The notes beneath the pieces are model-generated. The model was not told the origin of the DNA and made no database searches. It worked only from the letters and a program-made list of their open reading frames with translations. Positions 31,459-37,173 of a DNA stretch of 64,000 nt are shown piece by piece (the first letter of the stretch is position 1; every line of letters begins with the position of its first letter). Origin of the DNA: an uncultured Candidatus Saccharibacteria bacterium (GTDB lineage Bacteria; Patescibacteriota; Minisyncoccia; Phycocordibacterales; Zambryskibacteraceae); contig CAZDXF010000002.1 of NCBI GenBank assembly GCA_964509605.1, positions 25,514 to 89,513 of the forward strand. Direction: 5' to 3'. The translations under genes and the position numbers were made by a program.

Positions 31459-32697
31459 ATGGAAAAATCTGAGAAAATGATTAGGCTAGGGATTATTATC
31501 CTGGTGTCTTTCACGGTTTTTTGGGCAGTTTATTTAATAAAAAACCAATTTGTGTTAACGGGTAAAAATCTAAGAGATGGAGACGAGCTTTTAAAAGCAG
31601 AAGAAGTAAAAATTGACGAAAATCAAAGGAATTACGAGAAATATTTGATAAAAAAAATTTCTAATGAAGAACCTGTTGCCATCTTTGTATCTAATTCTGA
31701 CAATTCAATTTATTCATATAGCAAAAACGAAGGTAAAAAACTTATATTGAGTGCTGACGAATTACAAAAATATAACGATTCAAATTGGTATTATAATAAG
31801 TTAAACCTGAAAGGAGATTCTATTTTTTATACAACAAAAAAAGGCTTGTATTCAATTAGTATAAAAGGTGAAGTGCAGAATATATTGGATTTCAAGCTTT
31901 TTTCAGATTTTTTTGATGGTGTTTCTTTTATTCCATCTGAACCGATATTCTTGGATGATAATAGTTATATAATTAGTTTATCTTCTGGTGACAATGGTTT
32001 ACTACAACCAGATAGGGCCTTAATTATCAATGGAGATGCTGAGCAAAAGACAGGAACAATTGTTTGGGAAGAATCTGATGCCAGAGGACAATTATTGTTG
32101 GTTAATAAGAAATCTTTTGATGGCTATGTATATGTCACAAAGGGGGTGCCAAAGGGTTGTGGGGTTTGGCTAGATTTTCTTTTGGATCCAAATGATTTTT
32201 CGAAACACAGTGCGGATAATGAGCCAGGTCTATTTGAATATGGAAAAGAAGTTGTTTCACCAGATTTTAAATATGTGGCCAAGATGATTGAGCATCCAGA
32301 TGGTCATCCCAGGGGTGACATGTGTTATTCCGGTTATTCGGTTGGTATAGTTGCAATTTTTGACAAAGATGAAGGTATTTGGGATCTTGAAAAAGATCCA
32401 AGCTATGATTTTAGTCCGCTTGGTTGGACGAGTGATTCAAAATATTTCATATATTACAGAACAAAGTTGTCTTCTGAGTCAGATTTTGTCGTTTCAACTG
32501 AATACGCAATATTTTCTATGGAGACGGGTGAAAAATTTGTGGAAAAAGATAAAGAAGGAGTTGCGGATAGATTGAATCGCCTATATGGCACTGATTTATA
32601 TGAGGTTTTTATTTCTTCTAAATCTGATATTCCAGAATTTGATACGGACCATTTTGTAGGTTTTGTGGGTGCTTCTGAATTTTTTAGAATTTTTTAA
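31459..32697 (+). CDS. Hypothetical membrane-anchored extracellular protein
   Basis: N-terminal TM helix and a 412-aa ORF. Confidence 0.45.
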   Translation: MEKSEKMIRLGIIILVSFTVFWAVYLIKNQFVLTGKNLRDGDELLKAEEVKIDENQRNYEKYLIKKISNEEPVAIFVSNSDNSIYSYSKNEGKKLILSADELQKYNDSNWYYNKLNLKGDSIFYTTKKGLYSISIKGEVQNILDFKLFSDFFDGVSFIPSEPIFLDDNSYIISLSSGDNGLLQPDRALIINGDAEQKTGTIVWEESDARGQLLLVNKKSFDGYVYVTKGVPKGCGVWLDFLLDPNDFSKHSADNEPGLFEYGKEVVSPDFKYVAKMIEHPDGHPRGDMCYSGYSVGIVAIFDKDEGIWDLEKDPSYDFSPLGWTSDSKYFIYYRTKLSSESDFVVSTEYAIFSMETGEKFVEKDKEGVADRLNRLYGTDLYEVFISSKSDIPEFDTDHFVGFVGASEFFRIF

Positions 32698-32880: not shown

Positions 32881-33498
32881 ATGCAAGATAATAAAAAAAT
32901 ATTATGGGTTCTGTTGTCTCTGGTTTTGATTACTAATATATTTTGGATAGCCATTTTTTATTTTGGAGAATTTGTAAACACAAGTTATCTAGATCTCTTA
33001 GAAAAAAAGAAGGACCAAATAGAAGTAAAAAAAGAAAGTCGTCATTTTAATTTTTTTGACATTTCTGATCTAATTTATTCGCATGGCGATTTTAATCTCT
33101 CTCACATTGATTTTTTAATGCTGGGAGAGTCAGAAGTGGAAGGAAGTTTTAGGCTTATTTCTAAATTTAAGCCATATAAATTCGTCCCAATTCTAATGTT
33201 TAGAGTAGAAGGTGATGGGGTTGAAAAAATACCAAGAAGATCTTCTTCTTATGGAGCCATAGATGGTTTGCCGGTATTTTTTACTTTTGAAAATTACCAG
33301 GATGCATTGGAAATGTTGCAAATTGACGAAAAGGTTTTTGAGGATTCGTCCATATGTAGTGTAGAAGGGTCTGCCAAGATAAAAATAAAGGATTTCATAC
33401 TTGCCGAGTCTAGTGCTGAATTTGGCGCAATTGACTCCACTTCTCTTGAGGAAGTCATCTCTTTGAATGGTCCTAGATTAGTGAAGTGTGCGATTTAA
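32881..33498 (+). CDS. Hypothetical membrane-anchored protein
   Basis: N-terminal TM helix. Confidence 0.4.
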   Translation: MQDNKKILWVLLSLVLITNIFWIAIFYFGEFVNTSYLDLLEKKKDQIEVKKESRHFNFFDISDLIYSHGDFNLSHIDFLMLGESEVEGSFRLISKFKPYKFVPILMFRVEGDGVEKIPRRSSSYGAIDGLPVFFTFENYQDALEMLQIDEKVFEDSSICSVEGSAKIKIKDFILAESSAEFGAIDSTSLEEVISLNGPRLVKCAI

Positions 33499-33595: not shown

Positions 33596-33895
33596 TTACA
33601 TACTGTTTTCTACCTGAATTCTTAGATTAGCAACTCTTTGTTGCAGTAGAGATATAAATTGCATTTGTATATCTCTAAGTTTTTGTTCAAGTGCGATTAT
33701 AATTTCCAATCTCAACATATTCGCTCTTTTTTCCAGTAAAACAATCAATTCTTTCTGTGCATCAATAAGTCGGGCTTCTATTACGGCTCTCTCTTGCTCA
33801 CTCAAAGTTTGTCCGGAGCTCGCCATTGCAGTTGTCGGTATTAATGTTGTTAGAATGGTCAAAGCAACCGCAAAAAACATAATGATTTTTTTCAT
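33596..33895 (-). CDS. Small secreted coiled-coil protein
   Basis: Signal peptide followed by heptad-like repeats. Confidence 0.4.
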   Translation of the reverse strand: MKKIIMFFAVALTILTTLIPTTAMASSGQTLSEQERAVIEARLIDAQKELIVLLEKRANMLRLEIIIALEQKLRDIQMQFISLLQQRVANLRIQVENSM

Positions 33896-34116
33896 AAGTT
33901 TTTGTTTGTTTGCTGATAAATCTGACCCCAGTCTATGTTTTTATAGACTCATTTTATTAAGACGAATCAAGGCCAATTTTATTTCCACCGCTTCCGTTTA
34001 TATCTATACAACAATTCTGCAGAATTGTTGTATAGATTAGGACACTTTTTTAATCAAACTAAGGCTGTGATATGTGTGGAACGAAAAATACCCGAAATGA
34101 ATCGGGTATTTTCGAT

Positions 34117-34522
34117 TGTGGAGGTGGGGAGTAGTGAGCTCCCGTCCAAAAAGCATTCTCAAATATTTCTACAAGAGGTAGTCTACCTCATTGGTTTTAA
34201 GCACTGTGAGTATAAGACAGACAAAACCTCACAATACCGTAGCTTCTACATTTCAGAAAATAGCGAAGCGGTTATTTTCTAAAGTCTGAAAATATTACAC
34301 CAACATTTCACTTACAGACTTTGTGAAAGTTGACGTCGTTCGGGTAAGCTTACGCTGTGACCGGAACGAAAGCAAAATCTTTAGCTCCAAAATATGGAGA
34401 AACTACTGACTTTGCTTTTGCGACAATGCTGTTTGCATTTATCTTTATGGCGGATTAAAGAGTCACCACAGCTCTCTCTTGCATATTTGAGAGGAAACCT
34501 TTTGTCGAATCAGTTCACCCCC
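34117..34522 (-). ncRNA. ssrA: tmRNA (SsrA)
   Basis: Minus-strand 5' end GGGGGUGAACUGAUUCGACAAAAGG matches the tmRNA 5' consensus. The 3' end is ...GGGAGCUCACUACUCCCCACCUCCACA. The acceptor GGGGGUG/CACCUCC pairs with a G3-U70 wobble. Lies ~90 bp from smpB. Confidence 0.65.
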
Positions 34523-34608
34523 GTCGTATCAGCTGTTAGCTTATAGCTTTCAGCTCTTAGAAAAGAAATCTTCCGTCCTGAAAGCTAATACCTATAAACT
34601 AAAATCTA

Positions 34609-35055
34609 CTACTCGTATTTCAAAGTTCTTCTAATGTCTATATCGGTTTCGCGCTTTTTTACCGTGTGCCTTTTATCACCCATTTTCTTTCCGCGCCCTA
34701 TTCCGATGGAGACTTTTATAACTTTACCCTTATTATACACCATAATAGGCACTATTGTCAAACCCTTTTGACTCTCCTTTACTGCAAGCTCAGCAATTTC
34801 TTTTTTGTTCAAAAGCAGTCTGCGGTTTCTTTCGGGGTCATAGTTTTTAGGAGCATTTTTTATTTGAAATGGTGGAATTTGGGCACCAACAAGAAAAACT
34901 TCTCCTCCACGCACCACAACACGAGAGCCCTCTAGAGAGCCTCTTTTTTCTCGGATTGATTTTACTTCAAAGCCAAAAAGCTCGAGACCCGCTTCAAATT
35001 TTTCTAAAATTTCGAAGTTGAAATAAGCTTTTTTGTTTTCTAGCAGGTTTGCCAT
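34609..35055 (-). CDS. smpB: SsrA-binding protein SmpB (start at MANLLENKK)
   Basis: SmpB sequence. Confidence 0.85.
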   Translation of the reverse strand: MANLLENKKAYFNFEILEKFEAGLELFGFEVKSIREKRGSLEGSRVVVRGGEVFLVGAQIPPFQIKNAPKNYDPERNRRLLLNKKEIAELAVKESQKGLTIVPIMVYNKGKVIKVSIGIGRGKKMGDKRHTVKKRETDIDIRRTLKYE

Positions 35056-35102
35056 ATTGGAATCATAGCAAAACAGAGAGATTATTGTATAATGGCTCAA
35101 CT

Positions 35103-37040
35103 ATGGCAAATCCCAACACTAAGAAAAAGAAACAGCATAAGGTTGTTATAAAAAGGGGCTTTAAACAGGGGTCTGGCCCTCAAAATCCAATGTGGAAAAA
35201 TTTTCTTTCCACCCTCCTTGTTTTTCTCATCATAATGACACTTTACTCCGCTGTTTCCGAGAGGAGGGAAAAAACCGAGCAAATTCCGATTTCACAACTA
35301 GCTTCGGCTGTAATAGAAGAGAAGGTTTCAAAGATAATTGTAAGCGGAGATAAACTGGAAGTTGAATATTCAGACGGTTCAAAAGTTGATTCAAAAAAAG
35401 AAGCCGAATCTTCTCTTTCTGAAACTCTGTCAATTTACGGAGTTTCTCCCGAAGTTTTAGCGAAAGTTCAGATTGAAATAAAGTCACAGGGAGGTCTTGG
35501 TTTCTGGATCTTGAATTTATTACCGATTATCATACCGATTTTATTTATAATATTTTTTATTTGGTTTTTGTCCCGCCAAGTCAAAGGGGCCGGCATGCAG
35601 GCATTTACTTTTGGCCAATCAAAGGCGCGAATTATTCCAGCTGGAGACACAAAACAAAAAGTCACATTTAAAGATGTCGCTGGTGTGAAAGAAGCAAAGC
35701 AAGAGCTTTATGAAATTGTAGATTTTCTAAAAAGCCCGAAGAAATTTTTAGATATTGGCGCTCAAATTCCAAAAGGAGTTTTACTTATGGGTGCTCCTGG
35801 AACAGGTAAGACGCTTTTGGCTAGAGCTGTGGCGGGTGAGGCAGGAGTGGCATTCTTTTCAATTTCTGGTTCAGAATTTGTAGAGATGTTTGTGGGCGTC
35901 GGAGCTTCTAGGGTTAGAGACTTATTTCAGCTTGCAAAAAAGGCATCTCCGGCAATTATTTTTGTTGATGAAATTGACGCTGTTGGAAGGGTGAGAGGAG
36001 TTGGCGCCGGTGGTGGAAATGATGAAAGGGAGCAAACTCTAAACCAAATTTTGGTGGAGATGGATGGTTTTGAACCAAATGAAAAGGTGATTGTAATGGC
36101 CGCGACCAATAGACCCGATGTGTTAGATCCAGCACTTCTTCGTCCGGGCAGATTTGATAGGAGAGTTGTGATTGATTTGCCAGATAGGGGTGATAGGGAA
36201 GAGATTCTTTTAATACACGCACGACAGAAACCTTTAGCAGAAGATGTGAATTTGAAGGTTATTGCAGAGCGTACCCCAGGTTTTTCTGGTGCGGATTTGT
36301 CCTCCCTTATGAATGAAGGAGCTATTCTTGCCGCTAGGGAAGATCGCACCAAAGTTTCGCAGTTTGATCTTATTCGTTCTATAGAAAAAGTAATGCTAGG
36401 TCCTGAGAGGAAAAGCCATCTTCTATCAGTAAAAGAAAAAGAAATTACTGCGTACCACGAAGCGGGACACGCCTTAGTTGGTTCAGTTCTTGAATATTCT
36501 GATCCTGTTCATAAAATTTCTATAATTTCTCGTGGTCGTGCCGCTGGATACACATTGAATCTTCCTCTTGAAGATAGAAGATTACAATCTAAAAAAGAAT
36601 TTTTGGACGATATAGCGATGTCACTTGGAGGTTATGTCGCAGAAAGGTTGGTGTTTGGTGATATTACTACAGGCCCGTCTAATGATCTGCAAGTTTCTAC
36701 TGCCTTAGCACGAGATATGGTGACCAAATATGGAATGTCTGACAAAATGGGCCCGATTGCTTTGGAAAGTTCTTCCGGCAAAACTCTTTTTGGCAGGGGA
36801 GTTGATGACAGAGATTATTCAGAAAAAGTTGGAGCCGAAATTGATGCTGAAGTTTCAAAGATAATGAAAGAAGCGTTGGCAAAAGCTCAAGATATTCTTG
36901 AAAAACATCGCAAAGTTTTGGATGTGATCTCTTTGAGACTTATAGAAGTTGAGACAATAGAAAGGGATGAATTTGAAGATATATTGGTTGCAAACGGCAT
37001 CACCCCAAAAAAGAAAAAAGACATAGAGCACCAGGTTTAG
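35103..37040 (+). CDS. ftsH: ATP-dependent zinc metalloprotease FtsH
   Basis: AAA+ Walker [18 protein letters not shown] zinc site. Extended -10 tgTATAAT lies upstream at ~35084-35091. Confidence 0.9.
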
Positions 37041-37084: not shown

Positions 37085-37099
37085 TGAACGATTACATAG

Positions 37100-37173
37100 T
37101 CCGCCCTCCAGGATTCGAACCTGGGACCCCGGAGGTATAAGCTCCGTGCTCTAACCAACTGAGCTAAGGGCGG
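37100..37173 (-). tRNA. tRNA-Ile (anticodon UAU)
   Basis: Cloverleaf: acceptor CCGCCCU/AGGGCGG, D-stem GCUC/GAGC, anticodon stem CGGAG/CUCCG with loop CUUAUAC, T-stem CCAGG/CCUGG, T-loop UUCGAAU. CCA not encoded. Confidence 0.65.

Follow-up and report, generated by a model that had tools for sequence, protein, structure and literature searches.

The elbow that joins the T-loop to the D-loop is among the most conserved of RNA tertiary motifs, and a transfer-messenger RNA (tmRNA) gene whose T-loop reads CUCACUA, where the consensus is UUCRAYU, raises the question of whether such a gene is damaged, peculiar to one genome, or functional with an elbow built in another way. We address this question for a full-length ssrA (tmRNA) gene on the minus strand, at 34119-34522, of a 64,000-nucleotide stretch of contig CAZDXF010000002.1 (hereafter the window, meaning this whole stretch), which comes from an uncultivated Parcubacteria bacterium. 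An earlier note had proposed a tmRNA beside smpB at this position, with a non-canonical T-loop and an ambiguous tag. We think it likely, judging from comparison of sequences, that the gene is a functional ssrA with a discrete, selected alternative elbow module, one that is specific to tmRNA and has been adopted independently in several lineages.

The Rfam tmRNA family RF00023 matches 34116-34522 (-) across the whole of the model (positions 1-374 of 374) with 108.9 bits (E=1.3e-41), far beyond chance for a family with a gathering score of 47, and an intact smpB, encoding the cognate SmpB, lies upstream on the same strand, with 86 nt between its stop codon and the 5' end of ssrA. Both the placement beside smpB and the covariance search that had been recommended as a check are therefore borne out. 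Read on its own strand, the RNA begins GGGGGUGAACUGAUUCGACAAAAGG at 34522 (the longer 5' read is GGGGGUGAACUGAUUCGAC...) and its 3' end at 34119 is GGAC-GGGAG-CUCACUA-CUCCC-CACCUCC-A, followed by genomic CAA, so that CCA is not encoded and must be added post-transcriptionally. The acceptor stem of 7 bp is tRNA-Ala-like, with G3.U70 present as G3.U401 and A404 as the discriminator; the end sequences and the G3.U70 stem given in the earlier note all hold. The gene contains all the parts that trans-translation needs, namely an Ala-identity acceptor, helix 2, pseudoknot 1 (PK1), a tag frame opening with GCA, PK2-PK4 and a T-arm.

To compare this architecture with that of relatives, the structure of the acceptor stem, helices 2a-c (H2a-c), PK1, helix 5 (H5), PK2-4 and the T-arm was drawn on the window sequence, in which 109 of 109 pairs are standard, and its pairs were counted on a MAFFT alignment of 31 Parcubacteria tmRNAs (A1). 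In A1, 81.0% of cells are paired, as against 62.2 +/- 0.5% in shuffles and 39-47% with the partners slid; as the drawn structure comes from a sequence that is itself in the alignment, pairing is somewhat favoured, but the compensatory counts are unaffected. Both sides change in 89 of the 109 pairs, and the covariation score is 0.528 as against 0.203 in shuffles, none of 500 of which reaches the observed value. Helix 1 shows compensation at two of its pairs, is 99.1% paired and keeps the G.U in 30/31 sequences, and the T-stem is 99.4% paired with all five pairs compensatory. H2a/b/c, which join the tRNA-like domain to PK1, are 79-97% paired (19/22 pairs compensatory), and the PK1 stems, helices 5 and 6 of the alignment count, are 76-80% paired with both-side changes in 13/13 pairs. 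The outer helix of H5 is 78% paired and its inner three pairs align poorly (50%); stem 1 is 87% paired in PK2 (13/14 pairs compensatory), 79% in PK3 and 80% in PK4, and the second stems of PK2-PK4 are weaker at 57-68%. Covariation thus backs each helix and each of the four pseudoknots. The earlier note had regarded a sub-threshold model score and pseudoknots that fail to fold around the tag as evidence against a tmRNA, and neither is what we find.

The departure lies in the elbow. The T-loop CUCACUA sits on a 5-bp stem and has the normal length of 7 nt and, in tRNA numbering, U54, A58, the pyrimidine at 60 and G18 are replaced by C54, C58, A60 and U, whereas the G53-C61 closing pair, U55, C56, purine 57 and G19 are retained. 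The change at position 18 is in the D-loop analogue, which reads AACUGAUUC, with UG in place of GG; in canonical relatives it is A-U-C-G-G-C-C-U-A, typically AUCGGCCUA. Of the unusual features named earlier, the T-loop was thus rightly recognised, but the D-loop change coupled to it had gone unnoticed. In a canonical elbow U54.A58 (trans Watson-Crick/Hoogsteen), G18.U55 and G19-C56 make up one continuous stack (PMC7912444), and by comparison with this stack the changes in the window all fall within one structural layer. The interaction between the D-loop and T-loop of tmRNA is reported to be necessary for SmpB binding and function, and U54 of tmRNA is methylated by TrmA (PMC3968760). The tRNAs of the same loci keep canonical T-loops, which makes the elbow change specific to tmRNA: UUCRA is found in 64 of the 66 tRNAs of the window and the variant loci, including both tRNAs of the window, and CUCACUA in 0/66.

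With a metagenome-assembled genome as the source, and with the gene finder ARAGORN not calling the gene, one could suppose that the T-loop reflects a mistake in sequencing or assembly, or that ssrA is decaying into a pseudogene. However, an independent Logan assembly (L082) is identical in sequence to the window, and the same elbow occurs in two further contigs. One of them, L081, was retrieved via its SmpB protein (82% identity) and thus independently of the RNA; its tmRNA has the same 5' 22 nt, D-loop and T-arm as that of the window and is 74% identical over the rest. The other, L132, likewise has CUCACUA and a D-loop without GG. Moreover, about 50 other tmRNAs carry the same loop on compensatory stems, the rest of the window RNA is intact and co-varying, and smpB is intact. 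For practical purposes an artefact or pseudogene is refuted, and we allow it next to no chance.

How unusual the elbow is among close relatives was assessed with SmpB as bait. Among 5.8 billion clustered proteins there is a single identical copy of the window SmpB and a single close relative (P0002, 82%), all remaining SmpBs being at most 71% identical to the window protein. Scanned against one genome per GTDB species, it gave 80 loci (L001-L080, best identity 69%), all of them Patescibacteria/Parcubacteria (Paceibacterota, Kaiser-, Taylor-, Zambryski-, Campbell-, Ryanbacteria and others). ARAGORN found a tmRNA just 3' of smpB at 53 loci and an nhmmer profile built from those found 24 more, superseding a strict 5'-end regular expression that had matched 15/80 tmRNAs; at L032, L041 and L077 neither ARAGORN nor the profile gave a tmRNA, and L017 was left out of the statistics because its 3' end was mis-parsed. 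None of the 77 tmRNAs has the CUCACUA loop. Nearly all are of UUCRA type, with UUCGAUU or UUCAAUU in about 70% of lineage clusters, and the 9-nt D-loop analogue contains GG in 75/77.

Beyond this sample the loop recurs. Metagenomes were scanned with the pattern GGAC-N5-CTCACTA-N5-CRYYTCCA, which leaves the T-stem free and does not include the D-loop. There were 66 matches, 53 with five of five T-stem pairs; the remaining 13 have T-stems of at most four pairs and no upstream partner, and were taken as the empirical chance background. A complementary GGG... 5' strand is present 307-414 nt upstream in 50 of the 53, the other three being cut by contig ends, and 19/20 representatives are full-length tmRNAs by RF00023 (70-138 bits), with smpB adjoining most variant tmRNAs. 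Clustered at 80% RNA-body identity they form 26 lineages, with 13 T-stem sequences (always complementary), five acceptor types, lengths of 336-422 nt and very diverse tags, from ANTANYLAA up to 32 residues. GG is absent from the D-loop in 25 of the 26 variant lineages as against 2/62 others (Fisher p=1.5e-18, to be read as indicative since lineages are not fully independent), and the variant D-loop consensus is A-A-Y-Y-G-A-U-U-C. These data point to the CUCACUA elbow as an alternative and discrete state, found repeatedly in scattered lineages, and neither as a quirk of one genome nor as a generic trait of the Candidate Phyla Radiation (CPR).

The phylogenetic distribution of the variants bears on how often the state was adopted. 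Exact-sequence look-ups of the SmpBs encoded beside variant tmRNAs returned Microgenomates group bacterium RIFCSPHIGHO2_01_FULL_45_11, Candidatus Gottesmanbacteria, Candidatus Kaiserbacteria and Patescibacteria group bacterium. In one group (L116/L134/L140; tag ANTANYLAA, 336 nt) the nearest named SmpBs, at 53-58% identity, are from Thermosulfurimonas, Planctomycetota, Bipolaricaulia and Elusimicrobiota, that is from non-CPR phyla, which indicates that this group is not CPR. The SmpB tree puts variants within groups of canonical neighbours at four or more points: the window and L081 group with L001/L003/L004; L085/L091/L135 lie inside a Kaiserbacteria clade beside L072, L034, L036 and L009; L090/L100/L131/L110 lie with L043 and L030; and L094-L144 and L084 are next to L067-L071. 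A comparison of RNA bodies, from which acceptor, D-loop and T-arm had been removed, is independent of SmpB. The window body is 74% and 72% identical to those of canonical L004 and L037, 74% to L081 and 68% to L132, as against at most 58%, the background level, to other variant groups. The same relation holds for variant L085, 71% identical to L009 and likewise close to L072, and for variant L090, 72% identical to L030. These identities exclude whole-gene transfer between variant lineages. Taken together, the SmpB and tmRNA-body trees show at least three independent switches of the elbow. Two histories would account for this, a repeated origin of the same four or more substitutions or a repeated return to canonical loops, and each of them implies two discrete, interconvertible elbow states.

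Two variant contigs call for a remark on their origin. SmpBs at least 90% identical to that of L084 (Ga0209720_1000016) are labelled 'Candidatus Pacearchaeota archaeon' at NCBI, and the L084 cluster probably represents a contig of bacterial (CPR) origin that ended up in an archaeal metagenome-assembled genome, the same mis-binning that a 2025 tmRNA database paper suspected for tmRNAs in archaea (PMC11915505). In L110, positions 1-414 hold the 3' portion of a gene for 16S rRNA (324 bits with Rfam SSU_rRNA_bacteria), about 230 nt from the variant-elbow tmRNA, and this fragment could place that lineage taxonomically.

In terms of mechanism, the known pathway suggests that ssrA would be transcribed with or just after smpB and that the RNA would be trimmed by RNase P, given its CCA and charged by AlaRS. 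The charged tmRNA would be bound by SmpB and EF-Tu and enter stalled ribosomes, where a hydrophobic, Ala-ended degradation tag of 29 residues would be added. In the elbow itself, the G19-C56 outer layer, the surface touched by the ribosome and processing enzymes, would be preserved, and the inner 54.58/G18 layer would be replaced by another arrangement. With low confidence we suggest that (U)GA of the D-loop may pair in Watson-Crick fashion with U55-C56(-A57) of the T-loop. N-G-A is enriched in the D-loop: of the 43 distinct variant sequences, 32 have xGA and 19 have UGA, as against 2/76 others. A full three-base-pair UGA/UCA helix between the loops, which fits the 19/43 variants only, was set aside as a model and kept as a low-confidence idea. 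A bolder proposal, which we consider rather unlikely, is that bacteria have repeatedly switched to a second, structurally distinct elbow in which the T-loop motif is abandoned for another contact between the loops, such as a Watson-Crick mini-helix in which D-loop (U)GA runs antiparallel to T-loop U55-C56(-A57). Drivers of such switches could be anything that acts on the canonical tmRNA T-loop and spares tRNAs, such as integrases that target the ssrA T-loop, T-loop nucleases or the loss of a modification enzyme.

Several points weigh against a selected and discrete state. The search required CUCACUA, which makes the heptamer invariant in the metagenome set by construction, so that conservation within a lineage rests mainly on the pair formed by the window and L081. 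The SmpB tree that separates the variants was built by neighbour joining from a protein of 150 aa and carries no support values. One variant lineage (L130) retains the D-loop GG, the UGA/UCA pairing is only partly supported by the counts given above, and the function of the variant tmRNA is inferred from conservation. The SmpB-selected sample contains other odd T-loops (AUCAUUC in two clusters, UGCAAUU, UCCGAUA, and loops of 6 nt in about six clusters), and across four local contrasts between variant and canonical tmRNAs no SmpB column changes in parallel, global differences between variant and canonical SmpBs merely reflecting phylogeny.

These last two observations also speak for relaxed constraint, under which the inner elbow layer would be dispensable in CPR bacteria, for instance because SmpB holds the D-loop, and CUCACUA would be one outcome of neutral drift. 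It is consistent with this that the odd loops come from an unbiased, SmpB-selected sample of Parcubacteria, that the Kaiserbacteria clade alone contains four different elbow states and that a stabilising effect of SmpB on the single-stranded D-loop is known (PMC3968760). However, one would not expect drift to arrive repeatedly at the same three substitutions together with the same D-loop change, yet the identical heptamer is found in three or more sub-lineages of Parcubacteria whose closest relatives lack it, as well as in Microgenomates and a non-CPR lineage. Moreover, the window and L081 share an identical D-loop and T-arm despite 26% divergence of their RNA bodies, and the association with loss of GG is almost complete. 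We regard neutral drift under relaxed constraint as improbable for the whole pattern and possible for part of it.

The deviant loops of the relatives are of some interest in themselves. Loops of 6 nt (UUCAAU/UUCGAU/UUCAAC) on a 5-bp stem occur in L024, L025, L027, L040, L044, L047, L048, L057 and L075 (and in L030). Further elbow variants adjoin the CUCACUA lineages: L036 combines AG in the D-loop with the T-loop UGCAAUU, so that positions 18 and 55 are both altered; L009 and L061 have AUCAUUC, in which 54/58 are swapped to A...U, and L072 has UCCGAUA. The Kaiserbacteria-like clade to which L036, L009, L061 and L072 belong looks like a hotspot of elbow change. As for the flanks of the elbow, Parcubacteria mostly have ...CCUAGAC...GCAC, and the window and other bacteria ...UUCGAC...GGAC; these positions (A/C before GAC, C/G in the junction) tend to change together, with L015, L016, L038 and L039 as exceptions. 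The tmRNA of L062 (3606-4153) is about 547 nt long, and the nhmmer profile matches it in two overlapping pieces, 1-295 and 217-387, a pattern suggestive of roughly 140 nt duplicated or inserted internally, within the pseudoknot region.

An island or prophage integrated into ssrA might also have exchanged the native T-loop and 3' end for its own copy. tmRNA genes are frequent integration sites, at which the inserted elements reconstitute the gene's 3' part (PMC11915505), and the open reading frames downstream of ssrA in the window (33596-33895, 32881-33498, 31459-32697) have no Pfam match. In contrast, no displaced 3' end is found in the window, where matches to its pattern occur at chance level (13 vs 6.9 +/- 2.6) and none downstream has a T-stem; no integrase was recognised near ssrA, a terminator lies directly 3' of the gene, and the 3'-end pattern occurs in 0 viral contigs. 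Importation is also at odds with the alterations in the T-stem's 5' half and in the D-loop, at the 5' end of the gene, which a 3' insertion cannot reach. An imported 3' end is largely refuted, and we give it very little credence.

The tag frame translates as ANSIVAKAKSVVSPYFGAKDFAFVPVTA, opens at RNA position 87 right after PK1 and ends with UAA at RNA 171-173, within the helix-5 loop, giving a product of 29 residues when the charged Ala is counted. Relatives encode clearly homologous tags (L035, ANNLVTKAKSVVSPYFGAKDFTFAYAIA; L037, ANKVVAKAKSVVSPFFGVNDFAFAYVRA; L004, ...AKSVVSPYFGANDFAFVPVVA; L081, ANSIVAKAKSVVSPYFGVSDFAFATARV), and for that reason the tag is unambiguous. It belongs to a long-tag family of Parcubacteria type that is common to related genomes. 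The alignment to CPR tmRNAs that had been advised thus locates both resume codon and tag, and it removes the ambiguity seen earlier. Of the two frames then considered, the first is correct (28 codons, 29 residues with the charged Ala), as is the guess of a CPR-type tag; the second, ending ...QKQSQ, was rejected because it is unconserved in relatives and out of register with PK1 and helix 5.

ARAGORN, the other check proposed, reports two tRNAs in the window and no tmRNA at the ssrA locus. Restoring U54 and A58 in silico is sufficient for it to call the gene, with the same 28-codon tag, whereas restoring GG alone is not; hence the miss is caused by the T-loop. It detects 1/50 variant tmRNAs, that one being the lineage in which GG is kept, and it missed every Parcubacteria tmRNA with a 6-nt T-loop. 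ARAGORN is used for tmRNA in many annotation pipelines. Having missed 49/50 variants together with the 6-nt-loop class, it can make ssrA appear absent from CPR genomes as an artefact, and it is in this light that we note the 2025 database figure of tmRNA in only 78% of Patescibacteria genomes (PMC11915505). More generally, an essential RNA whose inner elbow layer has been replaced, naturally and recurrently, would reveal what trans-translation requires of the elbow: it seems to require the outer G19-C56 platform and to do without the 54.58/G18 layer. The variant tmRNAs provide a ready-made, naturally covarying set for structural work.

The features of the locus are collected in the table.

Features of the smpB-ssrA locus in the window; RNA positions are those of the tmRNA
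Feature	Window coordinates	Strand	RNA positions	Description
ssrA gene	34119..34522	-		404 nt, G1 to discriminator A404; RF00023 and covariation on alignment A1
Acceptor stem 5' strand, GGGGGUG	34516..34522	-	1-7	Pairs with CACCUCC at 34120-34126; includes G3.U70
D-loop analogue, AACUGAUUC	34507..34515	-	8-16	Single G is the G19 equivalent; the G18 equivalent is U
PK1	34446..34477	-	46-77	Stem 1 46-51/61-66; stem 2 53-59/71-77
Tag frame	34350..34436	-		Resume codon GCA 34434-34436, 28 codons, stop UAA 34350-34352
Helix 5	34337..34368	-	155-186	Stop codon in loop
PK2-PK4	34194..34336	-		PK2 RNA 187-242; PK3 RNA 243-281; PK4 RNA 285-329
T-arm, GGGAG-CUCACUA-CUCCC	34127..34143	-	380-396	Variant T-loop at 34132-34138
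smpB	34609..35055	-		148 aa from MANLLENKK; Pfam SmpB 156.5 bits, E=5.4e-46; homologues begin at the same Met
smpB-ssrA spacer / 5' leader	34523..34608	-		Predicted to fold as a long hairpin; would be removed by 5' processing
Candidate ssrA promoter	34732..34761	-		TTGACA-18-TATAAT, 12/12 sigma-70 consensus, within the 3' part of smpB
Intrinsic terminator 3' of ssrA	34084..34112	-		AAAAUACCCGA-UUCAUU-UCGGGUAUUUU then U; read from sequence

The terminator, a hairpin with a U-run, was identified by direct reading and is not listed by the consensus scan. The sigma-70 consensus within smpB lies about 210 nt upstream of the 5' end of the tmRNA and could be a promoter of ssrA's own. Between the two genes a hairpin is predicted at 34523-34612 (-), with a minimum free energy of -30.5 kcal/mol over 90 nt and arms AGCUUUCAG / CUGAAAGCU plus flanks, and this element may act in the processing or the attenuation of the precursor. 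On the other side, ftsH (35049-37040, +) divergently adjoins smpB-ssrA. In E. coli, FtsH is a protease that degrades SsrA-tagged proteins. In 70 of the 80 Parcubacteria loci an FtsH-like open reading frame is found no more than 3 kb from smpB, in 63 of them on the opposite strand, a conserved linkage of this protease with the tagging system. The window also contains a tRNA-Ile with anticodon UAU at 37099-37173 (-) (ARAGORN; Rfam tRNA, 69.7 bits). In bacteria AUA is normally read by a lysidine-modified CAU tRNA, and the UAU tRNA suggests a different strategy for AUA decoding in this organism.

Compared with the standard one-piece tmRNA (RF00023; E. coli SsrA), the window RNA has the same G3.U70 acceptor and discriminator A, PK1 before GCA, helix 2 with a G.A/A.G motif at its base, a helix-5 loop that holds the stop codon, PK2-PK4, a T-stem of 5 bp and T-loop of 7 nt, an adjoining smpB and a full-length match to the covariance model. 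It differs in its T-loop, which is without U54 and A58, so that m5U54 (methylated U54) is impossible, in the single G of its D-loop and in its unencoded CCA, and its tag has 28 codons, not 10, and ends VPVTA, not ALAA. As the other features and the model score hold, the non-consensus T-loop does not remove the RNA from RF00023. The relatives L004, L037 and L035 share its tag family (...KAKSVVSPYFGA.DFAF...), pseudoknot architecture and ftsH / smpB-ssrA order, with 72-74% body identity; their elbows combine D-loop AUCGGCCUA, junction GCAC and T-loop UUCGAUU/UUCAAUU, as against AACUGAUUC, GGAC and CUCACUA in the window.

The T-loop of tmRNA has been described as highly conserved, with exceptions only in mitochondria and Caulobacter (PMC1168896). 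The Reclinomonas mitochondrial and Caulobacter two-piece tmRNAs likewise indicate that the loop is not absolutely invariant, but there the changes are at positions 54/55 and in reduced or permuted tmRNAs, whereas the window RNA has the standard one-piece form. The 2025 database paper treats only introns in the T-loop (PMC11915505); with these group I introns the canonical loop is restored by splicing, unlike the CUCACUA/single-G elbow. Full-text literature searches gave no CUCACUA in the context of tmRNA (two matches were unrelated) and no discussion of the CPR tmRNA elbow, and variant sequences may well be in the 2025 database already, without comment. Set against the canonical tRNA elbow, that of the window keeps G53-C61, U55, C56, purine 57 and G19, so that the outer G19-C56 platform can form, and lacks the U54.A58 reverse-Hoogsteen pair, the intercalating G18 and the pyrimidine at 60, which define the motif (PMC7912444). 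The RNA is thus an ordinary member of a known family that carries a recurrent and apparently undescribed variant of the elbow.

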